In this document: positions 27,455 through 63,349 of the stretch, in pieces | Layout: each line of letters begins with the position of its first letter | How positions within the stretch are numbered: position 1 is the first letter of the stretch | NCBI RefSeq assembly: GCF_006345805.1 | Contig: NC_043019.1 | Coordinates: forward strand, 27,403,360 to 27,467,359 | From: Octopus sinensis | Taxonomy: Eukaryota | Direction: 5' to 3' | DNA: 64,000 bases | The notes under the pieces: model-generated | Databases searched by the model: none | Seen by the model: the letters and a program-made list of their open reading frames with translations, nothing else | Told to the model about the DNA's origin: nothing | Translations under genes and position numbers: made by a program

Positions 27455-30400
27455 TTAAATGACCTTGGTGGCCTCTGCAACTGCAGTTTCAACTTCCTGT
27501 CCGCATATCACCGTCTCCTCTTCGCCCTCCTCTGTCTGGTTCACAAACTGTAGTATGACAACTGTATGGCCATCCTCTTCGACAACGGTTGGATGTATTT
27601 CAGGCACCCGGATACTGTCTCCTTGTCCAGTGAAGACAGCATTGGACAAACTGTGAAGAGCTTCAGCAGCCATTCTTGGCAGAACACCATCAGTGGTGGA
27701 TACGGCGATGCTTGTGTCAGCTCCGAGGGTGATAATGGTTTCCTCTTCTTTATTACCGTTTTCGCTGTTGTCCTCTTCATTGTTGATGTCGGTGCTTTTC
27801 ACTGTGAGGTGCGATTCACTTTTCATACTGTTCTTCTGTGAGCGATCAACCTGTTTGCGGAGGTTACCCAGAAAGTTCAATTCCTTCAGTTTGTGCAGTC
27901 GTTCGGGATGTTTCTTCCGGTAGTGCCGGATCAGCGTATGACGGTGTCCGCATTTGGCATTGCAGCAATCACAGACGTACATCAAGCCACTGTGAAAAAT
28001 CTGCGTATGCTTTCGCAATTCGTAGCTCTTGACAAACTTCTTTCCGCAGTACTCACACATCAGCTTGTTGGTCATGGTGTGCTCAAGTCGGTGTCGATTC
28101 AGTTGATCTGGATACTTGAACTTCTTGTCGCAATACGAACAGGCAAAGTGTTTCTCCTGTGAGTGTGAGAACATGTGTGTTTTCATGTTGCCCTTCTGGC
28201 GGAATTCCTTGCCACATGTCTTGCATGTGTACTTTGGTGGTGCATCTGAATGAAACTGCCTCATGTGTGACACCAGACTGGTTTTGGTCTTCACTATTTT
28301 ACCGCACTCGGCACACTGGTGCTGGTACTTGTTCTCATGCACGGAGGCTTTGTGCTCTTTCAAGTAAGTGATATAATGGAAACGCTTTCCACAGATGTCA
28401 CACTCGCACGTCTTCTCACCATGGCACTTCAGGTGTTTGTTCAGGTTGCTGACGGTGACAAAAGACTTTCCACACAGGTGACAGATAAGATTGTCGTGGA
28501 TGTAGACCTGGTTGTGGCGTCGAACAACACGTACCAATGTACCGTCAGGCAGACGACAGCTGTGGTCATTGAGGTAGTCTTTGCGATAGAACATCTTGTT
28601 GCACACCTCACACTTAAACTGAGGTTCACCGTGGATGATTTGGTGCCGACTGAGATACTTGTCTGAGCGAAATGTCTTGAGACAAATCTCACAACGAGCC
28701 TCGTCTCCGTCTAACAACTTGTGGCAAGAATGGGTCTGCAGGCTTCCTCGTTTGACGAACCTTTTACCACAACGTGAACAATCAAATGGATGTGTATGCT
28801 TCTGGAAATGATCCCGGTACTCTTTAGCATCGGTGAATTTAGCTTCACACTGGCCACATGCAACAAAGCCTTCACGTTTGATGATCGCTTGGCTCATACA
28901 CAGCCTCTTGTGCCAGTTTAACTCTTCGTTCCTGTTGAATCCTTTCAGACAGATGTCACATTCATAGGTTGTCGTGTGTGTGGCCTCATGATTGTTCAGA
29001 TGTTGCAAGTTGGAAAATGTCTTCTTGCACACTCGACACATAAGCTTGTTGTCGTTCTCTTTGGAGGATTCCTCGGCCAAAGGTGTGCATTCGTGTTCTT
29101 TCAAAGCCTCCTCAACAGCAAATGACCGTCGGCATTTGAAGCAGTGCAACGAGAAACAGCGAAGCAGGTGGTTTTCAAGGCCAAGCTTTGTTGAGAAAGT
29201 GCGACCACAGTTGTGGCAGGAATGAATGTTTTCTGCAGCAGCCCTTGCTGGGTCACAACGCAGGATGTGTTTCTGCATAGAATCCTTGCGTGAGAAGCAG
29301 CGGCCACATTGCTCACACTTAAAAATATCTGTATGCATCGCTAAATGACGGAAAAGATATTTCACAGTGCGGAAACTTTGTTCACAGATATCACACTGGT
29401 GTAGGGCATTCTCATTTTCCTCCCCTTTGTTGCTACTACACGCATGGCTAACCAGTAGGTGGCGTTGTGAAAACTTCCTTTTGCATCGGTCACATTTCCA
29501 GTGATCAGCTGGTGCAGTGGCAGGCTTTTCTCCAGGTTCCAGCTGTGAAGTGGAGAGCTCAGAATCGTCTTGTGTAAAACTTACTCTGTCATCAGCGTTG
29601 TCACCAGTCTGGAGCACAGTTGAGTTGGCATTGCTGTCACACCGATGTTTCATTAGAGATTCCTTTCGTGTAAATCTCTTGCAACAGAGATCACAACGAA
29701 AGCGGTCAGTGTGTGCTGGTGCATGTAGTTTCAGATACTTTATGTTGGTGAATCTTTTGCCACAGACGCAGCAGGCATAGAGAATGACATCGTCCGTCTT
29801 ATCAATCAAAATATCTATGCCATTGTCTTTGGCAAGAATTTTACATTTCCTTCTGGATTCCGGTGAATCACTGGAATCATCTTGGTTATCCTCATTAGCT
29901 GTATCAGAGTCCTTGAAATCAGACTCTAGTACTTCTCCTTCTTCACATTCATCTTCACCTAAAATGTCATCAGTGTCGTCATCGGCCAAATTCTTGCTGC
30001 TTTCATCATCAGTGACAGGTGTTTTCTCACTGTCACTGTTCACCAAGTCAGCTTTCTGTGAAGTTTTGCTCTTTGATGGAGACTGCTCTTGAGAAGTTTT
30101 GGCTTTGATGGCTACTGATGTGGTGTTGCTTGTGTTCTTGCTGCTGACCAATGACACGGCTGTGTTGCTGTTGGCCGGTGTAGTTGCCTGCGTTTGCAAT
30201 GCTTTCGGTGGTCGCCCACGACGACGAGTTGCACCAGGCACTTTCACAGTTTCTTGCAAAACCTTTTTCTCCAATGGCTTTTCAGGTTTTGCTACTTTAC
30301 TCGGCTCTTCTTCATCAATTGCTTTGTTACCAGTTGTTCTAATACCCTTCAACCGTCGTGTGGGTAACACCCGTGCCAGGCTTTGCGAAGGCGAGGCAGC

Positions 30401-32826
30401 CTGGACAGGTGACTGACTAGTACTGGTTTTTACTTTCTTAGGTGTTGACAATTCTGATTGTGATTTGTCACTGTCAGAACTGGCTTTTGGTTTTCTCCCC
30501 AAATGAAGTGCCTGGCGTGTGCGCTTCCTAGGCCGACCTGGGCCACGTGTCTTTTTCAGGGGCTCTTCTTTTGTGGTGCTAGCTTCAGCGGCACCATTAC
30601 TTTTATCTGTAACATCACTGACAACTGTTGGCTGGCAACTCTCAGAACTCTTTGCAGTGACCTGTTCCGGTGTGGCTTTATTCTCTTCACTCTCACCTTC
30701 ACCTTCATCTTTATTCAGCCAAGCAACGTCAGCAACAACATAGTCAACAAACTCTACCAATTTGTTAACTTTGTTCTCAGTTGTCTCACTTGACCCATCA
30801 AGTTTTCCCAACTTCCCATCATCTCCATCTTCAATGGCACTGGTGCTCTTAGTCTCAGAATCATGACTGACATCTTCTTCAACCAGTTTTATTGTAACAG
30901 GTTCCTCTGACGTGCTTTCTTTGCAGTGAGTATCCATCTCCTCAGCTGCTGTTACACAACTTGTGTCATCGTCATTTTTCTCTTCTTTGGCCAGCACGCT
31001 GACAACATTAGCATCCAACTGAACAATCTCGAATGACTGACTTTCCATAACTAAGCTGTTCTCATTTGCTTTGGTGTCCACCTCATCTGTAACTACAGTG
31101 GTAGTATCATCAAGCATTGATTCATCAACAGGTGAATGCTGCACAGCTTTGTCAACCAGCAGACGTTCTTCAACCTCTTCACCGGTAATTTCTGCTTCCT
31201 TCACCACAAACTCTTGATTTACTACAGACTCCTGCAGACACTTTTCTGCGGAATTCTCTTCTACTACAGACACAGCTACTTCAAATTTCTCACCATCATT
31301 CGATTCCTCTACAACAGAGTTTTTGCTAACAACCGACTCTGTATTTACATCAATGACAGATTTATCACAAACCACGGTCTCTTCTATAATGGTCGGTATA
31401 ATAATGCTCTTATCGTCTTCGGTATGTGCAGACATGTCTATCTCTTTCACAGTCTCTACAAGGTAGTTCTCACACTTAATAGTATCGGCTATTTTCTCCT
31501 CCTGCGACTGAGACATTCCTATCATATTCTTATACATTTCAGATATGCTCTCATGAGTGTTTTCAACATGCACCACTTGAACTGTAGATGAACCGGCTGC
31601 TATATTCTGTTCATCGCTGCTGTTGTTACTGTTATTGTCACCACTGCCTTCAGGGATATAGTCAGTGTTGGAGACAGTTTTAACATACATACTGTCAAGA
31701 CGTTCGAAAGCTTCTGATACAGTCACTTCACTAACATGTTGATAACTTTCCTTATCTTTGTAGTCAAGGTCACTGTCTTCAAGCGATATCTTGGCTTCTA
31801 GAAGAGCAATTTTGGTGATATCTGGTTTCTTACACTGAGTTCCGATATCCTCGTTTTTACCGACATCCAAACTTTTCTCGACAAGTTCAGCAAGGTTCTT
31901 ATCTAAAATTAAGTTAGTAGACTCTGTAGAATTTCCAAAATTACAGAAATTTGCCTGACAGATGGCAACCTTATTCGAAGAATCAGCAACCTCGTTTACC
32001 TTGCTTTCTTCAACAGATTCAGATGAAATAACAATGGTTTCTTTGGCATCTTCAGTATTATTAATTTCATGAATGTTACTGTCATTATTATTATTATTAT
32101 TATTATCATCGTCATCATCATTATTATTATTATTACCGCTGCTATTACTGTTGTAGCTCTGAGTTTTCACTTCTGTCAATTCACTATACGACTCACCGCC
32201 ATCATTAGATCCAACGGCAGCAGCAACTTCTTCTTCTTCATCATTTTCGTGGTCATCACTGCTGCCTTTATCCAAAGAATTAGCTAAATCTTCACTAGTC
32301 TGGTCCTCATACTCAAACAGATTACCCTTTGAGCCTTGCAATTTCACCTTGCTGTGTTTTGAGAAGAGATGGTTCCACATGACATCCAATCGGTAACTAC
32401 GGTAACCGCACTCCACGCATCGCAGGATCTGGCCTTTGTGCTTCTTCATGTGTCGTTGGTAGTTGCTCCTGTTCACAAAACCAATGTTACAAACCGAACA
32501 GTGAAACTTAGATTTCCGACTCCGAGTTTTGCCTCCACGAGGGTTGCTGTTGGGGACAAGGTGGGCCCTCAAGTGCTTAGCAAGGTCCACCTGGCTGTTG
32601 AAAACATTTTCACATTTGCTGCACTTGTACTCTTTAATCTCCTCACTTTGGATTAATGACAAGATGTGGTTCCTGTAGAGTTTATCGCAGTCTGTTTGCA
32701 TCCTCTCCAGGGATTCCTCAGACACTGACACCACTTCCGTAGCCTGGTGCTGCAAAATTGCAACAGTTGCTTCCGAGGTAATTTCATCAGTGTTGCTATC
32801 TTTCTCAGTTAGCAACGACACCATCA
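27455..32826 (-). CDS. PRDM10/15-family protein, terminal coding exon (3 + 20 zinc fingers, acidic region, 2 AT-hooks)
   Basis: 5372-nt open frame; acceptor poly-T-CAG at 32827-32829, phase 1 (G|TG) matching the upstream exon; AT-hooks PGRPRKR and RRGRPPK; stop TAA at 27455-27457. Confidence 0.95.
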
Positions 32827-33545
32827 CTGAAAAAAAAAAAAAAAAAGATTTTATATGGTGGGAAAACATCGGAGATTAAAGGAGATTATTCACTTAGTAA
32901 TAGATGCTTGTGTATATGTGTGCATAACAAGTTAACCCTTTTGTTATCATATATCTGCTGAAAACATTCGAAATAATTTGAATATATAAACATTACATTT
33001 GGCAGAATAATCTGAAAGCTAAAGGGTTAAAATAGGAAGACTGTAACATAGGACCAGGGGATGTCCCAGGTGCGTTCATATGAAAAGGGTTAAACATGGA
33101 CTGATATGTCTCACACACACACACATGCCAGCGAAAGGTACCCATGCAGGTGACACATGAATGGCATCCATGCTGGTGACATGTAAAAGGACCCACCGCT
33201 TTCTTGGAGTGGTTGGTGTTAGGAAGGGCATTCAGCTGTAGAAACCGAGCCAATAAGAGCTTGATGCCGCTCTCCAGCTTACCATCTCCAGTCAAACTGT
33301 CCAACCCATGCCGGCACGGAAAACAGTCATTAAATGATGAGGATGATGATGATGATGATGATGACCATCACCCTCATAATTACTATAATTCTTGCCACCT
33401 CCAACTCAAATTCCTACAGTTACTACCACAACTACTACAACTTGAAAGATTACCACCACTACCCCCACCCCACCACCTTAACCATCAAATGCTACCACCA
33501 TGGTGTGAACAGTGTAAGGAAAATTTTGAACCTAAAACTTTACTC

Positions 33546-33959
33546 GGATCTTTTTGGTTTGAACAGCAGTTTTTAACATAATTTCCACATAACTAAACAC
33601 TTTTAAACTTCGTATACTGGTAGAATGTGTTTATAAAACATCTTTTTCTCTTGGTTTTATTGAGAAAATTCCATAGTTTGTAAGATATTTGTTGTTTTTT
33701 TTTCTCCAATTTCTGCAATTTCAACCAATCACTGACGTCCATTGAGGTAAAAAAAATCATTCTGTGCTGTATGAATATGTCCCTCGTTTAAGAAACAGAT
33801 TGGGTTTATTTATATTTGTGAAGAAAAAAAGATACCCTTCCCCCACCCCTAACCCTAAAACAGATTGAAATGCAATAGATCGATACTAGGGTCATAATTA
33901 TGGGTGACAATTTCATATGGCACCGCTAGTAAAAACTGCCATTCAAACCGAAAAGATCC
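33546..33959 (+). mobile_element. Merlin-type MITE, full length (414 bp)
   Basis: TIRs GGATCTTTTTGGTTTGAACAGCAGTTTTT / AAAAACTGCCATTCAAACCGAAAAGATCC; 8-bp TSD CTTTACTC / CTTTACAC. GG...CC ends with an 8-bp TSD fit the Merlin superfamily. Confidence 0.85.
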
Positions 33960-33971
33960 CTTTACACTTAC

Positions 33972-34218
33972 CCTTATAATCTTTGCATGGCTTCACTGGT
34001 TTGCCCAACTTTTTAGCATAATGTAAGGCATACCAGACTTTCAGTTGCTCCCCTTCTTGGATGGTTCGGATGCTGTTGTAGAAGATGTTTGTTCCTAACT
34101 GGTAGGCAATGCAGTTCTGTTCCTCCTCGTTCTGTGCACATTGCACCAAACACATCCAGTTGCAATCGTTTTCGTTAGAAGTGTCGAGAGAGACAACAGC
34201 ACCGTCTTTAGATAAGAT
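33972..34218 (-). CDS. PRDM10/15-family gene, PR/SET domain C-terminal exon
   Basis: ILSKDGAVVSLDTSNENDCNWMCLVQCAQNEEEQNCIAYQ...LKVWYALHYAKKLGKP, very PRDM15-like; CAG acceptor, G|GTAAGT donor; phases 0 to 1. Confidence 0.95.
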
Positions 34219-34611
34219 CTGTTACGGGAAGATTACAAGAGTCAGAAAAAAAAATACAAGCTTCATTTAATTATAACGAAAAACAAAGGAAAATAATTAA
34301 ATGATGTCACAGCGCAAGAGTTACCTCCCTTCAATTAGTCAACATAACTATAAACAATAAAATATAAACCTATTCAGATAATTACTAAACAGCATGAGAA
34401 GACCCCCCATGTACAGACAAGGTTTACAGCATGGTTAGAATTTCATTGACACACACGTGTGTATGTGTGTATAATAGCACTAAGCATTGAGGGTGATAGC
34501 AGATAAGTGAGGTCTTAATGATGTGGAATAACAGAGTCAAGATGGCATGGAAAAGTGGTGATTGGTGGAAACAGTGGGGGGAGGGGTCATGGGAATTGGA
34601 ATTGGATTAAG

Positions 34612-34646
<35 letters not shown>

Positions 34647-34739
34647 GGCAGGCTTCTTTCAGTTTCCATCTACCAAATCCACTCACAAAGCTTTGGTCAG
34701 CCTCAGGCTGTAGTAGAAGATACTTGCCCAATGTCATTC

Positions 34740-34774
<35 letters not shown>

Positions 34775-34799
34775 TATACATCCATACATACATATAATA

Positions 34800-35130
34800 T
34801 AGGGTAAGATTATTAATAATAATAATTTTACCAAGTAGTCAGCATGTTAAAAAACCTTTTAGATAAATTATACAAAATATTCTATAATTATATACACAGT
34901 TATAATGAGGGGTCAGCTAATTGCCTTGCCACGTACTGAATTAGAAATAGATGCTAATGTCTTTTCAACTACCATAAAAACTCCGAGAAAATAACACACA
35001 GTGTGTTATTTTTCTCAGAGTTTTTGTGGTAGTTGAAAAGATACTAGCATCTATTTCTAATTCAGTTCATGGCGAGGCAATTAGCTGACCCCTCGTTATA
35101 ATTGTGTATATAATTATAGAATAATTTATA
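34800..35130. repeat. Fold-back element, ~122-bp arms centred at 35000, embedded in (TA)n; possibly Penelope-like terminal repeat derived
   Basis: 34878-34999 is the reverse complement of 35001-35123 with about 10 differences; leader resembles the shorter hairpin element at 16960-17070. Confidence 0.85.
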
Positions 35131-35611
35131 TATATATATATATATACACACATACACACATATATAAATACATATAAGCTGACACTTAGGGTGACGAGCT
35201 GGCAGAATCGTTAGCACAATGGGGTGAAATGCTTAGCGGTATTTCGTCTACCATTATGTTCTGAGTTCAAATTCTGCTGAGATTGACTTTGCCTTTCATC
35301 TTTTCGGGGTCAATTAAATAAGTACCAGATACACACTGGGGTCGATGTAATTGACTTAATCCCTTTGTCTGTCCTTGTTTGTCCCCTCTGTGTTTAGCCC
35401 CCTGTGGGCAATAAAGAAATAAATAACTGACACTTGTCTAACCTGTTTGTGTATGGAATGAAAGACGATGTAAAGTGATAAGAATGAAACACATTTATAC
35501 ACAGATGCAAGTCTCCTTATTAAAAAAAGTAAAAAAAAGCATGAAAATAAAAAAGAAGAAAGGAATCTCTTAATTATTTCTGGAGGTAAAATTATCAATA
35601 ATTGGAATTAC

Positions 35612-35774
35612 CTTTAGAATGAAGATATTGTCAGTATCAAGGTCCTGAGTTGTTCTTCTGGCCTCAAATGGTCCAAACTGTGTCTTGGCTGGTATCACGT
35701 GTTGAGCCACCACAGTTAGAGAGGAATCTATGTGTTCTAACAACATCAAGTTGGACGGTAGTGTAAGGCGTGCC
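35612..35774 (-). CDS. PRDM10/15-family gene, PR/SET domain N-terminal exon
   Basis: ARLTLPSNL...IPAKTQFGPFEARR...FILK; CAG acceptor, AAG|GTAATT donor; phases 2 to 0. Confidence 0.95.
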
Positions 35775-36031
35775 CTGACAGGTGACAACACAAGAACAGA
35801 TTGACAAAGTTTAGAAGAAAGATTAAAAAAAGAAAAAAAAAATTTAAAAGGTTGTTGTAGTAGCAAAAATGATACAACATCGTGTGTGTGCATGTGCGCT
35901 TATCACCATTGAGATAAAGCACCTTACTTGAAGTGTGTATGTGTGTGTATGTGTGTATGCATGTGTGTGTGGAGAAGGTAACTCAGGTAACTGGGATAAC
36001 TCTGACATAAAACCTGCGGCTCAGTGGTTAC

Positions 36032-36202
36032 CGATGATGTTGACTTGTTCTTCTTTTCGGATTATGGCTGCTGTTGCTTAGTGAGTGGGATTGACTCAGT
36101 GCACAGTGGGATTGACTCTTCCTGCACAGGCATTGCATGATAACAACATTGTTCATGATTGTTGATGGTGCTGTGAGTCTCAACGGAATGGCTGGCTGTA
36201 GC
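36032..36202 (-). CDS. Candidate alternative cassette exon of the PRDM gene (171 nt, phase 2-2)
   Basis: TTTGCTTTTTAAG acceptor, CG|GTAACC donor, stop-free in the required frame (LQPAIPLRL...KRRTSQHHR). Confidence 0.5.
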
Positions 36203-36523
36203 CTTAAAAAGCAAATAAAATTCACATTCGATCACAGCACCAATAACAGTTAAGCCTCGTGCAATGGCCATACTCGATAACGAGGGGGTAGCCATCATAT
36301 ATATACAAATACACATAAAACATTATATGTTAATTAACCAATTAGATTCTAATGTTAATATTCAAAGATATAACACATTATCAACCCTATTTATGTTGTT
36401 TGAAAGAGACAGAGAGAGGGGAGACAAAGGAGAAAGCAATAAAGAGGGGTGAAGAAAGAGAAAGGAGAGAGAAAAAGGAAGGAATGAAGGAGAGATAGAC
36501 AGATAGCTAGAAATATTCCTTAC

Positions 36524-36794
36524 TTTGACATCACTTTGAACTCTCCAACTGGTGTGTTGAGTCCAAGTTCTGGACATTCTTCAGTGAGGTGGTCACCGCC
36601 ACATACATCACATCCAGCATAGAGGTCAAGGAAGAGTGTGGTTGCTGTTGCAGCATCGGATACTGTTGCAACTGTAACTGATTCGGCAGCTTCTGTGACG
36701 ACAGCTGTTGCAGTCGTAGCTCCGCCAAGGGCTGACACTGCGGCTGTGACTTCATCTTGGGACGCACAGATTATTGTAGGTTTCTCTTCTGGAG
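36524..36794 (-). CDS. PRDM10/15-family gene, zinc-knuckle exon
   Basis: PEEKPTII...GCDVCGGDHLTEECPELG...FKVMS; CAG acceptor, AA|GTAAGG donor; phases 1 to 2; joins as VMSK-ARLTLP. Confidence 0.9.
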
Positions 36795-48705: not shown

Positions 48706-49482
48706 AACCTTTTTTTTTTTTGTTTTTTGAGGACATTTCTTTCAAGAGCTCTAACTTTTTCCAACCTATTATTTACCTTACTTTCCAGATAAATAATTCC
48801 TTACAAAACCTTTTGTCCAAATTTTAAGCCCGAAAAATTAGGGGGTTCCTTATACACGTTAAAATACGGTATATCTCAGTGAGTTGCAAGGATGAAGTAC
48901 AAGCAAAATTAGAAGAAAGACGGAAGAGTTATTTCCCCTGGACTTGTATTAAAGACAAGGATGACAAAACAAAGTCGATCTCGGCGGAATTTGAACTCAG
49001 AACCATGAAGACAACCACAATGCCGCTAAGCATTTTGTTCGGCACGCTAACAATTCTGCCAGCACGCTGCCTTTCGTAATAATCCTTTTTACTAAAGCGG
49101 CGAGCTGGCAGAAACATTAGCACGCCGGGCGAAATGCGTAGCCGTATTTTGTCTGCCGTTACATTCTTAGTTCAAATTCCGCCGAGATCGACTTTGCCTT
49201 TCATCCTTTCGGGGTCGATTAAATAAGTACCAGTTACGTACTGGGTCGATATAATCGACTTAATCCGTTTGTCTGTCCTGTCTGTGTTTAGCCCCTTGTG
49301 GGTAGTAAATAAATAGGTATTTCGTCTGCCGTTACGTTTTGAGTTCAAATTCCACCGAGGCCGACTTTGCCTTTCATCCTTTCGGGGTCGATCTAATCGA
49401 CTGACCCCTCCCACAAAATTTCGGGTCTTGTGCCTAGAGTAGAAAAGAATAATCCTTTCTACTATGGGCACAAGTTCGAAGT

Positions 49483-49587
49483 TTATTGGATTCACACCTC
49501 ATTGAATTTATGTGGTGCTATGAATTCAAAGATAAAACATTCCAAAAATTGTTGGAACATATTCGTTGCAAATATCCTTACAATTGA
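49483..49587 (+). pseudogene. Merlin transposase C-terminal fragment
   Basis: Translates LLDSHLIEFMWCYEFKDKTFQKLLEHIRCKYPYN*, a typical Merlin C-terminus. Confidence 0.75.
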
Positions 49588-51590: not shown

Positions 51591-52287
51591 GCAAAGGTAA
51601 AGGAGGCAAACACCACCCATTTTCGGATATTTATCTTTTTGATACAGGAGAATATGATTTTGACCAAAAAACCACATTTTCAAAATGTTAATACCCCCCC
51701 CCCCCAATTTATTAATTTTAAACTTTTTTCTAATTTTTTTTTAACCCATATAGAAAAATATAGAGATTATGAATCTGGGAACATTTTTTTTTAACTTTTA
51801 ATTTTTCTTTAAGAAATACTAAATGCCCCTTCCACCCCCACCCCACCCCTGTTTTCAAAAAATAAAGACTCAGAATCTATCTCCACTTTATAGGCATGGC
51901 TGTGTGGTTGAGAAGCTTCAATTCCAACCATGTCACCTTGGGTTCAGTCCTACTGTGCAGCACATTGGGGTATTCTCTTTCATTACAGCTGCATGTTGAC
52001 CAAAGCCTTGTGTGTTATATAATTACCATTACATGTATTGATATATAAAATAACACATACAACTCACTTTTTATCATCATATAATAAACAAACAAAAGTT
52101 CATGTTACTTCAATTATTACATGTTTTCTCTTATAAAACATACACACACAGGAGGAGTACATCTACATATATAATAACACTTTGAATGTAGCTCCCGAGA
52201 AAGAGTAAAAGTAATTACCTGATCAACGATGGGCATTACTGCTAGTTATCTATATAACTGATAGCAAATTTTGTATGAAATTATATT

Positions 52288-54734
52288 AAATCCAGGTTTA
52301 GTCACAGATCAATCAAGATAGTAATGTTTTAACAATGTGAGGTATACTTGCCATCTCAATATGGCTAACCACTAAGGGTGGGTGTTACTGTAGCTTGTAG
52401 CCCAGGAGAACATCGTCTCCAGCTGGCTTTAGACACACTTACTGTGCCCTTAAGGTATTTGCAAAGTGAGGTCATCCTTCCCTCGTCAACCTAAGTGATA
52501 CACACGGAACAGTTTTGTGACAACATAGTGTCTCGATACATTCTAATGAAAATGTGATAGAAAGAGATAATGCCACTCTCTCTCTTTGGAAGAGAAATTA
52601 ATTTTGGTGTTGATAGAAAGGCAGAAAACACTGGAAGCAGTCAAGTGGAGCAGGAGACATAGCCTGCAAAATTAAGGAAAAACGTATTTAGACTTATTTA
52701 TCATGAAAAAATGGCATGCCTTCACAAGTAGCCCCTACCTGACTTTATTTTCATCCCCACCTCAATCAAGAGAAGCTGTGTGTGAGTAAGAAAAAATATT
52801 TCTAATAGAAAAGTATGCTATTAAAATGTATTCTCATTTACATTCATCTTTTCTGCCAGCAATGACCTTCTCAGGCTCTCCAATATTAACAATTTTAAAA
52901 ATATTTTTTACCAAAAAGCTTCTTCTATGGTTTTGAAGTGCAAAAAAAAAAAGAAAAAGGCCAAAACCGGTCTGGGGGAGAATGGTGATGAAGGGGTGGA
53001 AAAAAAAAAGAAGAAAATTTCGTTAAAAAGTATCCATTTTTCTGGAAGTTATGAGGCAACAAAGTTGACGCTGAAAGATGGATGTCTTTTAATGAAATTT
53101 CTGTGGTTGGGATGTACAATGCATATTCCATCATTTTCCATTTTTCAGACAGTTGTGAGGAAAGAAAAATTGAAGGAGTCACATTGTGTAGGTATGCCTG
53201 AAAAAGTACACAGAAATATGTTATAAGAATTATCATTTACATACCGTTCAAAAATCATTGTGGATAAATTTCTGCTATGTGTTTTAGGAAGGTCTTGTAA
53301 TTCTCCCATGCTCGGTCATACGTCATATTATAAAGGTCTCTGTACATGGCCTCGTTGACGTGTAACCATCGCATATCTCCACTCGACGTGAATTTGTATT
53401 TCAGTCTACTCTTAATTCGGTTCCAGTAGCCCTCCACTTGATTTCCACATACACCACTCTCTGGGTCCACAGTTCCATGTATGTATCCAAGGCTTTCTAG
53501 ATTCCGGTAACTAGCCCACTGGTCTGTAAACACTATAGACCCTGGTTCTACGTTGTTGATAATGAGTGACTCCAGTGTCTCTGTCTTTCTATCTTCAACA
53601 TGTTGCAGATGTCCTTTTTTCTGGGTGTTGTCGTAGAAACCAACAACCCAGTATGAATGCACCACACGCCCGGCTTCATTTTTTCTCTGAAACATTAAAC
53701 TTTCATCTATTTCTACAACATGATTTGAGCCACCTAATTTTTTTTTATCTCTTAATAATTTCTGCAAACAGATTTCACGGCAATATTCATACCACTGTAT
53801 TGCAGTGACTTTACTGACATTGTTTGCTGACATGGAACTGGTTACCGGCATTTCAAAAATAAAATCGAAAATTAGATTGAAAATTTTGTACACAGAAAGC
53901 TTACTCTTCTCCAAGAAAGTCTTGGTACGGATTGACACTGCATTCTTGCACTTGTGGCATCTCCATACCACCCCATCTATGGCACGCTGAGAAGGCCTTA
54001 TGCTCATTTCCTTTCCACAACTACATGTCTTCTGATTCGAAATGATTCCATTGTCTTTCAGATATTGTATGAAATTCTCTTCCGATAAATTTTGGGCCAT
54101 TTCATATCTTGGACAATCCATCTTGAAAATCAAATTCTAAAAAAATTAGGAAAGAAAGTTCAAATAGTCAAAGAAACAAAATCAAAGTTAAAAAATTAAG
54201 AAAAAAGTCCAAACAGTCAAAAAATTATCAAAAAACAGTCAGAATTCATCATCATCATCATCATTTAGCGTCCGTTTTCCATGCTAGCATGGGTTGGACG
54301 GTTTAACTGAGGTCTGTGAAGCTGGGAGGCTTCATCAGGCCAGCCAGATTTGGCAGTGTTTCTACAGCTGGATGCCCTTCCTAACGCCAACCACTCCGTG
54401 AGTGTAGTGGGTGCTTTTTACGTGCCACCTGCACAGGTGCCAGACAAAGCTGGCAAACGGCCACGAACGGATGGTGCTTTTACGTGCTACCGGCACGGGG
54501 GCCAGGCGAGGCTGGCAACTAGCAAAACAATTAATTACAGGCGGAAGCTGTGGAGATTGTGATAATAAAACAAATGTTTCCCTCACCACCACCAAAAATT
54601 AATTTCTCTTCCAAAGAGAGAGTGGTAATTATTTCTTTCTCTCACATTTTCATTAGAATGTATTGAGACACTATGTTGTTACAAAGCTGTTAAAACTTTA
54701 CAAACCTGATCAACCTGTGACTAAACCTGGATCC
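52288..54734 (-). mobile_element. Merlin (IS1016/ISXO2-like) element with ~145-bp imperfect TIRs
   Basis: 54591-54734 (ending GGATCC) is the reverse complement of 52288-52334 plus 52512-52608; the left TIR is split by a 177-bp insertion; no matching TSD. Confidence 0.85.
53255..54121 (-). CDS. Merlin/ISXO2-like DDE transposase, uninterrupted 288-aa ORF (possibly domesticated)
   Basis: Zn ribbon CSCG...WRCHKC; SIRTKTFLEKSKL; LGG..HVVEIDES; PGSIVFTDQWASY; NQVEGYW; C-terminal HIAEIYP. First ATG at 54121 (the ORF track starts at an upstream TTG). Confidence 0.92.
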   Translation of the reverse strand: MDCPRYEMAQNLSEENFIQYLKDNGIISNQKTCSCGKEMSIRPSQRAIDGVVWRCHKCKNAVSIRTKTFLEKSKLSVYKIFNLIFDFIFEMPVTSSMSANNVSKVTAIQWYEYCREICLQKLLRDKKKLGGSNHVVEIDESLMFQRKNEAGRVVHSYWVVGFYDNTQKKGHLQHVEDRKTETLESLIINNVEPGSIVFTDQWASYRNLESLGYIHGTVDPESGVCGNQVEGYWNRIKSRLKYKFTSSGDMRWLHVNEAMYRDLYNMTYDRAWENYKTFLKHIAEIYPQ

Positions 54735-55000: not shown

Positions 55001-55488
55001 TCAATACAGCTCTTCCTACCCCCATTAGGTTTGTTAACTTGCTTATTGGTGACCAAGAGAACTTGTAGTAATTAACTGAAAATATTAAACAAACAAGGTC
55101 GTGAAATGTGCTAAAAACAAAAGCTAAATTACCCTTAAATTTTTTCTATAGTGAAATCATATTCAACACTGCATTTATGAATTTTTCATCTCACCATGAT
55201 AGGATCTTTTTTTTAAAACCTTTTTCTATTACTCAAATGAAAAATAAATGAATTAAAAAATTTTATTTCAATCTTTTTTTCGATTACACTAAAACAAAAA
55301 AATAATTTATGAATTTCTTTCCCTTGAAAAGTTCTCTTCCCACTCCCTCTGAAAAATTTTTTCCCCACAAATTTCTTTATAATCGGTCTGTTAGTGCAAA
55401 TTTTTGTTCTCATATTTGTTTAATACACATTTTTTACACCTATTTCACTTTTTGTTTTGGTGGCTGGTTGTTAAAGTAAATATTAACC

Positions 55489-55790
55489 CATGAATCACTA
55501 TAAATAACTGAGCCAGGTATGATATATACCTGGATGAGAGGAACCAGTGTTGCTTTGTCAGGCTTCTTATTTATTAGCGGCACAACAAAAAGATGCTTAC
55601 TGGTTCACTCTATTCCACTAAACAACCAAACTTGGCTCAGAATTCAACTCCTTCTTTATTTCTGGCGGACAATCAAGGTCTCATCAATTTCGACCTCAAT
55701 TGATTTTCTGATAATTCATTCCACTTTTCTGTTACTTCACAACAGAACCTCCAATCTACAGAAGATCTTGGACACAATTCCATCACTGTG
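55489..55790 (-). pseudogene. Merlin transposase catalytic-core fragment
   Basis: SVDWRFC...EVEIDETLIVRQK*...QVWLFSGIE*TSK...KATLVPLIQVYIIPGSVIYSDSW, with stops. Confidence 0.85.
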
Positions 55791-58329: not shown

Positions 58330-58980
58330 CTGTAATATCCGTCAATTGTTTGACTCCGCAGCAACAGTTAAATTGACAATATTGGACTGTTACATCATGC
58401 GAGAATTTGTTACACGTGTAACCGAAAAGGAAATTGACGAAAGAAAGGAAAGTTCTGAGATGGACGTGTAGAAAGGAGAAAGGTTTGAGAGTCGGTCCCT
58501 TCTTTGCCAATAGTAATTTGGACTTGAGAGAAATTTTAATGTTCATTTACTGCTGGGCATGTGAAGAAGCATCTCAAAGAAAATGTCAACGGGAGCTGGA
58601 ATGGAATAGTGAGGCTATTTGTAATTGGAAGAATTTCCTCCGTGACATATGCGCAGAGAAATTATCAATGAATCCAATATTACTTGGTGACCTTGGACGA
58701 AAGGTTCAGATTGACGAGTCTGTACTTAAATGGAGAAAGGGGTATGTTGGCAGATTGACACGACAACTGGGCTTTTGGTGGCATTGATACAACAAGTAAG
58801 GAGTGTTTCCTTGGGACAGTGGCAAAAAGGGATGCCAACACTCTTTTACCTGTGTTGGGCAAATACGTGAGACCAGGAACCACTGTGGTGTCAGATCTGA
58901 GGCGATAGTGAATCATCAAATTTCGTTGATCCTATGACAGGAAACCACAGTAATACAACCGAAAATCTGTGGACGAGGGC
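58330..58980 (+). pseudogene. Merlin transposase pseudogene
   Basis: GLRVGPFFANSNL...NWKNFLRDIC...KVQIDES; after a frameshift RDANTLLP...VRPGTTVVSD; then FVDPMTGNHSNTTENLW. Confidence 0.88.
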
Positions 58981-59297
58981 AGTTACCCAATTTGAGTTTC
59001 GACGGGAAAACTTGCAAAGGGAAAGGGATTTCTTTTTAAACACTCTATATTATTTCAATCTATTCTGCAGTCTGGGATTAATATATCCAATGATTTTAAG
59101 AGGTATGAGAAAGGTATTGTGGTTGGTATTGGCGCAGTTTGTCTCCTGCTGTATTACGCGCCAATATGCAACCCAACCAATCGCAACCTTCATTTAGTCT
59201 TCTAAATGTTCCGTTTGAGCCTATAATTTGCTATAAAAGTTTCACTGATTCTCCGTAATGTGTCTTTGGTTCTCACCACTGACCACAGAGCCCTCCA

Positions 59298-59859: not shown

Positions 59860-60527
59860 AATCGTAAACCACAGACAAATTCATGCCTGTTTTGATAGTA
59901 AGAAGCTGAACATGAGAACTTTTTTGTCTGCGAGAAAGTACGTGCCTGTTGCCTTAGTTACAAGCGAAACCGTGCAGTCTTTGAAGTCTTTTATCTGTGA
60001 GGAAGCACGTGTTCTGTGTGATTATGGGAGCAAGCTCCAGTGACTTCGCTTCTATTATGGGAACATTGAAAACAGAGGGTGGTCCTGGGAAGATTTTTAA
60101 AATCGATGAAACAGTCTTCTGAAGACGTAAATACAAATGAGGAAGACTCGTACTTGAGCAGTAAGTTTACGGAGGAATGTGTCGCGAGACCAGACAGGTT
60201 ATTCTATATGCAGTGCCATGTCGGAATCGTGACACACTGGAAGAATGCATACGTTTTCAGCGATTTGTGAGGGACGAACTCTCACATTCCTGAAATTGAT
60301 GGTTATAATTTTGAGAATAGAACAGTGAATGACAGCGTTGGGTTTGTTAACTCGAAAGATGGTACACACACTCACCAAGTGGGCCTCTGTGAACTAAGGT
60401 AATAAACGACGCCGTGGCACTCACCGTTCTATGGTAGGTTCATATCTCTGTGAATTTATGTGGAGGATATGAAAATTGTAATTTGTTTGAAAAATTGATT
60501 GAATGTATTTCTAACTTCCAGTTTTAA
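59860..60527 (+). pseudogene. Merlin transposase pseudogene
   Basis: KIDETVF*RRKYK*GR...YGGMCRET...TVNDSVGFVNSKDGTHTHQV...GSYLCEFMWR..NLFEKLIECIS. Confidence 0.85.
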
Positions 60528-61996: not shown

Positions 61997-63349
61997 ATGC
62001 CACCTGCAGAGGGCGTCACTAATCATAACACGAATATGGCTTCCGATGTCAGTAAGTCACGGTTGGATTTCACGGAAGAAGAAATAAGAAAGGAGCTCTT
62101 TCGGTATGGCATCAAAGATATCAACCGAAGTAGTTTACGTCAATTTCGAGAAGAACTTCGGAATTTGGTGAAAAAAATATCCTCAAGTTCTCTTCGTAAT
62201 GTTGGTAAATCCACCTCGATTTCGTCTTCTTTCAACAACGTAACTGACACTTGTTTGAAAATCTCTCCTCCAGAACCCTTTTCTAAAACTCCTCCAACTG
62301 CCAAGAACGTTGACGATAAGTCATGCCTGCCTCATACAGACGATCGTCGTCCTGCTAATTCCATGGAGCCGTCGATTGTTACCGTTTCTCACAATCGGCC
62401 CCAGAAAACAGCTGAATGTTCCAAACACGTTGCTTGCAGAAGAAGCTGTCAATTGTTCAACAGTGCCAATAAGGTGGATGGTCACTCGGGTATGACACCC
62501 AACCATCAATACACACACACTCAACAGCCACTGACTAATCGATCGGAAACGGAACATGAAAAGCAGGAGAATCTCCTTCAAACTTTCACCAGTAAAAACG
62601 TTCCGCAGCCAAACCAGGTAAATAGATTTGATCATCCCAAGAACAAAGAAAACGCTTGGTCTCGTCATATCGCACCTTCGTCATCTTCCTCATCTCTCTC
62701 ATCACAAGTATCGATCCCCAAACCATCACAAATCGCCTCCAACGACACCGAAAGCAATGCCATGAAAGATTATTTACTAAAGACGTTGAACAAACCTCCA
62801 CGACTAAACACTTATGTTACCAAGAGGAAGATCTCTCGCAAAGGCTCCGATGGTAAACGTTACATCGACAGAAGTGAATCTGTGTGTAGTATCAGTAGCA
62901 CTAGTTGTATATATGGCAGTTGCTGTAGCAGTATCGCTGACCCCGCTGAGTGCCAGAATCGTCTGAGAGAGATAACAAACAGAGGCGGCCAGTTCTGTCA
63001 AAGATCCCTGAGTTCTTGTGATAACCGGTTCAGGTCCTCAACTATAGTTACTCCATCACAGCCGAGGTTGAAGAAAAACAGAAAGACAGACCCCGTGAGT
63101 AGGTTCCATGAATTCCAAAGCTACTGGAAATTGCACAAGCCTCCCGGTGAAAATAATCACAACGCCCTTCGGTGGAGCATTAAAGAGAAAATTGCCAAAC
63201 ACGACGTCATAGGAAGCCGTCCACGGAAAACTTTCGTGCCCAATAATTATGTGATACCCTCACAAAACCCGAGACATTCTCTTCGATGGCAGGTGCGGAC
63301 TGATCTGGCTCACGGCGCGATGCCAACCACCAAATATAACGACTATTAA
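61997..63349 (+). CDS. HYLS1: Hydrolethalus syndrome protein 1 homolog (centriole/ciliogenesis), single coding exon
   Basis: HYLS1 box KTDPVSRFHEFQSYW...PGENNHNALRWSIKE...FVPNNYVIPSQNPRHSLRWQVRTDLA; N-terminal FTEEEIRKEL motif; 450-aa open frame; possible acceptor CCCCTGTAG about 24 nt upstream. Confidence 0.9.
   Translation: MPPAEGVTNHNTNMASDVSKSRLDFTEEEIRKELFRYGIKDINRSSLRQFREELRNLVKKISSSSLRNVGKSTSISSSFNNVTDTCLKISPPEPFSKTPPTAKNVDDKSCLPHTDDRRPANSMEPSIVTVSHNRPQKTAECSKHVACRRSCQLFNSANKVDGHSGMTPNHQYTHTQQPLTNRSETEHEKQENLLQTFTSKNVPQPNQVNRFDHPKNKENAWSRHIAPSSSSSSLSSQVSIPKPSQIASNDTESNAMKDYLLKTLNKPPRLNTYVTKRKISRKGSDGKRYIDRSESVCSISSTSCIYGSCCSSIADPAECQNRLREITNRGGQFCQRSLSSCDNRFRSSTIVTPSQPRLKKNRKTDPVSRFHEFQSYWKLHKPPGENNHNALRWSIKEKIAKHDVIGSRPRKTFVPNNYVIPSQNPRHSLRWQVRTDLAHGAMPTTKYNDY

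Follow-up and report, generated by a model that had tools for sequence, protein, structure and literature searches.

The window analysed here, a stretch of 64,000 nucleotides (nt) of Octopus sinensis DNA (NC_043019.1, positions 27,403,360 to 27,467,359 of the forward strand; coordinates below are counted from its first letter), contains on the reverse strand an open reading frame (ORF) derived from a Merlin/IS1595 transposase that is probably a real, domesticated Merlin transposase gene of Octopus. The features of the locus, with the basis of each assignment in brackets, are as follows.

53255..54121, reverse strand: Merlin/IS1595-derived ORF of 288 amino acids with a Cys4 motif, a helical region and an RNase H-like DDE core (ORF list, Pfam, family alignment, model, orthologues)
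53468..53473, reverse strand: junction left by a 21-nt in-frame deletion, through which the VNHSxNFVDP motif lost 7 residues (DNA and family alignment)
54122..54240, reverse strand: T-rich 5′ leader that derives from the element; its AG at 54137-54138 is a candidate acceptor (paralogue alignment)
54246..54518, no strand: dispersed repeat between the leader and the right arm (repeat search)
54587..54732, reverse strand: right (5′-side) remnant of a long inverted arm, broken off at 54732 (alignment to family copies)
52747..53073, no strand: second dispersed repeat, lying between the left arm and the stop codon, with approximate limits (repeat search)
52246..52612, forward strand: what remains of the long inverted arm on the left (3′ side), split by an insert and not a true element end (alignment to family copies)
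52335..52511, no strand: 177-nt insert in the left arm, consisting of a young high-copy repeat fragment and a 4-nt duplication (repeat search, arm alignment)
61997..63349, forward strand: HYLS1-family ORF, the synteny anchor, with O. bimaculoides orthologue LOC106875489 (protein comparison)
49468-49578, 55485-55703, 58398-58990 and 60078-60466: four further Merlin remnants, within 12 kb

As reported in an earlier note on this DNA, the ORF runs for 867 nt without a stop or a frameshift, and its protein carries both the four Cys (C33, C35, C55 and C58) and the D-D-E triad (D139, D200 and E230) that are characteristic of the family. The Cys columns are 85–99% conserved and the triad columns 95, 95 and 93% conserved among 94 family representatives, these being the members of 270–345 amino acids out of 146 new representatives; the three acidic residues are presumably catalytic, as we assume from the alignment and from general knowledge of such enzymes. 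The ORF matches the Pfam domain DDE_Tnp_IS1595 (PF12762) with an E-value of 2.9e-12 and 47.3 bits against a cut-off of 27. The N-terminal zinc ribbon is less firmly placed than the note had it, in that the four conserved Cys are present, yet no Pfam zinc-ribbon match is obtained and the structural model is of low confidence there. This AlphaFold2 model, computed from 11 sequences, has a mean predicted local distance difference test score (pLDDT) of 74.8, becomes confident at about residue 70 and superimposes on integrase-type RNase H cores (best Z 11.2, root-mean-square deviation 3.8, 127 residues aligned). An intact RNase H-like core is predicted on this basis, a common fold that by itself shows no function, and the fold searches returned generic integrase and transposase cores only, the matches listed including neither an IS1595 nor a Merlin entry. 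No fusion to PRDM or another host domain was found, the single longer match being an unrelated protein of 30% identity; this search is weak evidence, as long proteins crowd it.

The window protein falls into a three-member cluster at 90% identity together with O. bimaculoides XP_014779146.1 (LOC106875490, 295 amino acids) and the Logan protein P0001. It differs from the O. bimaculoides protein at 21 of 288 sites (93% identity), and P0001 is 88% identical, with 34 of 281 sites different from the window protein and 33 of 288 from that of O. bimaculoides. The closest O. bimaculoides match of the window HYLS1 ORF is XP_014779145 (LOC106875489), on the same chromosome as LOC106875490, and since both the accessions and the locus numbers are consecutive, the two are taken to be neighbours, just as their counterparts are in the window. 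The earlier note had proposed a search for the ORF at the syntenic site in other species, and in O. bimaculoides an open orthologue is indeed present beside HYLS1 (the HYLS1 side being the one compared).

Amino acid changes between these proteins are in clear deficit. Genome-wide, the synonymous divergence (dS) of O. bimaculoides and O. sinensis is 0.123 (PMC10925132). Neutral simulation of the ORF predicts 69.5±7.2 amino acid differences at this distance and 42.4±6.1 at 0.07, as compared with the 21 observed, and 21 or fewer differences arose in none of 3000 neutral runs at each of four distances. Simulations under a ratio of non-synonymous to synonymous substitution rates (dN/dS, omega) of 0.2, 0.3 and 0.4 give on average 15, 22 and 29 differences, from which we infer a dN/dS of ∼0.3 (range ∼0.2–0.4) from protein distance only; a value below 1, which the note had named as a mark of domestication, is thus strongly implied through the protein. 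By parsimony, 13 changes are assigned to the window branch, 7 to O. bimaculoides and 20 to P0001, with 1 ambiguous, where the neutral expectation is 38 for each of the window and O. bimaculoides branches. The neighbouring HYLS1 is less conserved than the Merlin ORF, at 353 of 412 sites (86%), and the HYLS1 paralogue pair is similar (335/365). Within the genome, omega of the ORF against its five nearest copies is 0.19–0.27 at dS 0.66–0.94, and 0.15 against a majority of the others. These values are not used as support, because the paths span the mobile phase of the element and three decayed copies are also low (0.20–0.40). A comparison of P0003 with the decayed C18 copy (81% over 135 amino acids) was considered as a neutral calibrator based on another pair of species and dropped, as orthology was not shown.

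The description of the ORF as intact does not hold at one point. A clean 21-nt gap near 53470, with 3 nt of microhomology at its junction relative to a paralogue, takes 7 residues out of the segment V-N-H-S-x-N-F-V-D-P, which is present in 24 of the 25 other genomic loci aligned across the deletion point. The segment is part of what we define here, from the family alignment, as the VNHS-x-x-FVDP...TN motif between the second Asp and the Glu; the motif is partly deleted in the window protein and degenerate in both orthologues. Twenty-eight alignment columns are conserved in the sense that at least 85% of the 94 representatives agree. The 24 that lie outside residues 218–233 (O. bimaculoides numbering) are all invariant among the three proteins and match the family in 23 cases, whereas none of the 4 inside this segment does so (Fisher p 0.0002, for a segment picked post hoc). 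The conserved positions kept include the four Cys, D139, E140, K147, R178, D200, H215, the Glu, which is E230 of the window protein, and the next Trp and Lys. In contrast, His220 (94% conserved) is replaced by Leu in both undeleted orthologues, and Thr233 (95% conserved) is lost in all three proteins, where Gly, Gly or Lys is found. As these two positions are changed across the proteins, the loss likely predates their split. The changes themselves are sparse in residues 33–118, which hold 4 of 41 (p 0.0015, with bounds chosen post hoc).

Other Merlin proteins are altered in the same region. The cluster P0046/P0190/P0192/P0194 (Logan contigs of 1.1–1.2 kb) is an open Merlin relative of 43% identity that has neither the second Asp nor the NHS..FVDP segment, and P0005/P0020 and the locus L012 bear deletions in the same motif segment as the window ORF. 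Such recurrent deletion could be a repeated route of disarming or could mark a deletion-prone spot. A second open Merlin protein of O. bimaculoides, P0002 (XP_014778708.1, LOC106875185; 295 amino acids, 64% identical to the window protein), keeps the HS..FVDP motif, lacks the first Asp (VEVKK) along with several further conserved residues, and is itself a candidate for a second domesticated gene. Neither P0002 nor P0190 has an orthologue among the candidates scored in this genome (133 of 1160 and 134 of 832, respectively), the best match being the window ORF.

No near-identical copy of the ORF was found in the genome by lower-bound searches with protein or DNA, in agreement with the low copy number that the note had associated with domestication. 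The best other protein match (135 of 1142 candidates scored) is 70% identical over 148 amino acids and contains stops, and the 18 DNA matches reach, outside the ORF itself, 77–78% over long stretches and 84–85% over short ones. Other Merlin families with open frames are present at 33–36% identity to the window protein. Relatives of the arms are dispersed as well, with 39 other matches at 72–90% (40 of 82 candidates scored). In the window, the other four Merlin remnants are short fragments, stopped or split over frames, just as the neighbouring copies had been described.

The remains of the parent element are more worn than first thought. Over 145 aligned sites the inverted arms at 52290-52612 and 54587-54732 differ at 16 (11%), with 2 gap columns in addition, close to the ∼12% counted earlier; the Jukes–Cantor (JC) divergence is 0.12, with an interval of 0.07–0.20. 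The arms had been taken for terminal inverted repeats (TIRs) of ∼145 bp that had lost a terminal GG and the target-site duplication (TSD). In the family copies, however, the same arm extends more than 400 bases beyond the arm ends in the window, and the left arm tracks the family as far as ∼52246 and has the bases usual for the family at the place where the GG was thought lost. The true element termini were not located in the family copies, and no terminal GG or TSD was identified. Since each arm breaks off within the longer arm of the family, no GG or TSD would be expected there and their absence carries no information; the element is more decayed than first stated. The 177-bp insertion seen in the left arm is confirmed at 52335-52511; among the 40 of 2678 candidates that were scored, the 39 best matches apart from itself are 95–97% identical to it. 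Where an RTE tail had been proposed at 54246-54520, a dispersed repeat is found at 54246-54518, the RTE label remaining that of the note. The AG after a pyrimidine-rich tract upstream of the ATG is likewise present, but not as the sign of host splicing for which it had been taken. The T-rich tract is common to paralogous copies (79% over 150 nt with L040, which holds the first 10 codons only, and 65% with L032) and, being present in those element copies, is a transposon heritage. A scan for CpG dinucleotides yielded no promoter assignment. Among 24 sequencing runs listed for the stretch, with no RNA source named, 20 (from 8 studies under three organism labels) share 66–84% of its short words; the contig sets of 17 of these 20 comprise only 14–106 million letters, a size that might fit transcriptomes and is at most a lead to expression, and one of the studies may have supplied the assembly itself.

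Taken together, these observations argue that the Merlin-derived ORF is a domesticated Octopus host gene, to which we assign a probability of roughly 0.85. The purifying selection on a host-kept copy that the earlier note had suspected is supported, whereas its argument from the lost GG and TSD is void. Given domestication, the protein would fairly probably be a transposition-dead protein with predicted DNA binding, and the complete explanation, a domesticated gene with a transposition-dead binder as its product, seems to us somewhat better than even. The element would have inserted at about, or shortly before, the split of O. bimaculoides and O. sinensis, since the arm divergence of 0.12 equals the species divergence of 0.123; the larger distance of P0001 needs either an older insertion or a faster branch, which the arm interval just allows. 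The His of VNHS and the Thr of (H/C)TN would have been lost before the three lineages parted. Thereafter the arms would have decayed, while selection (dN/dS ∼0.3) would have kept the fold and the N-terminal DNA-binding half, and the freed motif segment would have drifted and been partly deleted in the window lineage. The protein is predicted to bind the remnants of its own long arms scattered in the genome, as a site-specific chromatin or transcription factor. That it represses its own subfamily at present is less probable: the DNA search turned up no young member, and identity to the open families is only ∼35%. More tentatively, and on balance doubtful, this may be an Octopus-specific gene that was disarmed via the His/Thr motif before the catalytic Glu and not via D-D-E, for which the arm remnants of an extinct subfamily provided ready-made binding sites, possibly along a repeated route of taming (P0046 cluster).

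Several points weigh against domestication to a DNA-binding factor. The dN/dS is derived from protein distance, with a dS averaged over the genome and a simple substitution model (kappa 2, uniform rates). The window lineage carries more changes than that of O. bimaculoides (13 versus 7, p 0.26) and the deletion besides. The planned split of the changes between the N- and C-terminal halves is non-significant (13/121 versus 28/160, p 0.13), moderately conserved columns show no depletion of variable sites (p 0.71), and a comparison of 0 of 24 with 37 of 248 gives p 0.055. The model is weak in the N-terminal part, with pLDDT mostly below 60 up to residue 70, and the orthology assigned to P0001 draws on similarity and the shared motif loss only. 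The lost motif was likely needed for mobility and not for the host role, as judged from conservation only. Finally, all three proteins retain D-D-E together with the Trp and Lys that follow the Glu, a pattern equally compatible with a live nuclease.

A nuclease role is conceivable because the triad is kept, and in that case the product of the domesticated gene would still cut or process DNA, in repair or in rearrangement at arm remnants, the motif loss only stopping transposition. D139, E140, D200, E230, W233, K237, R178 and H215 are retained in all three proteins, the RNase H core is predicted to be intact, and the open P0002, without its first Asp, indicates that such a loss is tolerable, yet it is absent here. 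We consider a live nuclease unlikely, as all four highly conserved columns in 218–233, between D200 and E230, depart from the family, and as the survival of three residues at an omega of ∼0.3 over such a distance would be unsurprising. A further alternative starts from the imbalance of the branches and supposes that a once domesticated gene recently lost its function in the window lineage and is now decaying, the 7-residue deletion being an early in-frame lesion; P132S, R145Q, R238S and S253L indeed depart from residues common to the other two proteins. However, 13 changes are far below the 38 expected under neutrality (13 or fewer in 0 of 3000 runs), the asymmetry is non-significant, and the deletion sits in the one segment that is already degenerate in both orthologues, which makes recent decay rather improbable.

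Survival by chance, in which a dead copy, its protein free of selection, stays open by luck or because the DNA around it mutates slowly, gains from the large number of Merlin remnants (the 1142 candidates, of which 135 were scored), one survivor having been picked from many, and from a frameshift calibration that rests on 2 events (probability of none 0.007 at the point estimate and 0.55 at the lower bound). Against it, both frames were still open in only 16 of 3000 neutral runs at 0.123 with substitutions alone, no run had so few amino acid differences, the arms diverged at an ordinary rate, the third protein (P0001) is open too, and the decayed pairs L032-L037 and L037-L035 show omega values of 1.13 and 0.96; we therefore give this reading little credence. 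That the ORF belongs to a Merlin family that is young, has asymmetric ends and still moves is hardly credible, given the lack of a near-identical copy in the lower-bound searches, the copy at the same site in another species and the truncated, insert-bearing arms, although other open-frame Merlin families occur in the genome and Merlin TIRs can be highly imperfect (PMC8101967).

Around the ORF, the density of Merlin remnants appears high, with four within 12 kb, a figure for the window only. Elsewhere in the genome, five loci (L002, L003, L005, L023 and L026) carry two inverted transposase copies within ∼1–2 kb, an arrangement suggestive of foldback-like elements whose arms are very long. In Cordylochernes scorpioides, the predicted proteins P0044 and P0045 (1611 and 1750 amino acids) contain 14 and 11 Merlin-like stretches, which would be tandem arrays or gene-model artefacts. 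The window HYLS1 has a paralogue ∼134 kb away in opposite orientation (61997-63349 versus G000:C23:27330664-27331944), and both have counterparts on one O. bimaculoides chromosome. P0023, whose counterpart lies ∼125 kb from the Merlin ORF on the same contig, was rejected as a synteny anchor since it is a paralogue of the window HYLS1, and was replaced by P0021/P0027. At 27455-36770 on the reverse strand lies what we take, from its motifs, to be a PRDM-like gene, with a zinc-finger exon of 1806 amino acids, PR-domain exons at ∼33943-34221 and ∼35570-35899 and a zinc-knuckle exon at ∼36531-36770. Its 5′ end could not be placed, and with the Merlin ORF on the same strand the two may share a transcript.

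Domestication of transposases is well documented for pogo, hAT, P, piggyBac and Harbinger elements, and DDE transposases kept in this way include THAP9, SETMAR, PGBD5 and the pogo-derived CENP-B/TIGD genes. The octopus ORF resembles these as an immobile transposase gene kept by its host as a DNA-binding factor or nuclease, and differs from them in its superfamily, in its youth, in that it has so far been seen only in Octopus and in that no fused host domain was found. With Merlin/IS1595 elements (ISXO2-like, PF12762) it shares the domain, the DDE triad, the Cys4 motif and inverted arms common to genomic relatives; in contrast to them it is a single found copy at a fixed syntenic site, with truncated arms and a VNHS...FVDP...TN motif that is degenerate or deleted. 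Merlin elements have TIRs starting 5′-GG and TSDs of 8–9 bp according to PMC8101967, where Octopus is mentioned in the main text solely for 191 Merlin sequences in O. bimaculoides, and XP_014779146.1 is one entry of a supplementary hit list, without comment in the available part. In O. vulgaris, 2 recently active Merlin families are described in an accessible text that does not contain 'domesticat' (PMC13282606). Transposon-derived factors of Octopus, including a pogo-derived CENPB, are covered in a main text from which Merlin, IS1595 and ISXO2 are absent in the available part (PMC10027918), and the available parts of PMC13669787 and PMC5753468 hold nothing on this gene. No paper that singles out LOC106875490 was found in the literature outside subscription journals, with supplements covered for PMC8101967 only. 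The case is young enough for the parent element's arms to remain legible, and a lineage-specific octopus gene becomes open to testing; the motif loss bears on a family that has no close match among the solved structures searched. Within searchable papers, Merlin domestication has been suggested for protists only, namely for ORFs of Stentor, Symbiodinium and Perkinsus (PMC8101967), to which octopus adds an animal case with synteny and a deficit of amino acid changes. The likeness lies in a conserved ORF without signs of mobilisation, syntenic in two species of Stentor (PMC8101967), whereas the octopus gene is that of an animal, retains arm remnants and the DDE triad, and has its constraint quantified.
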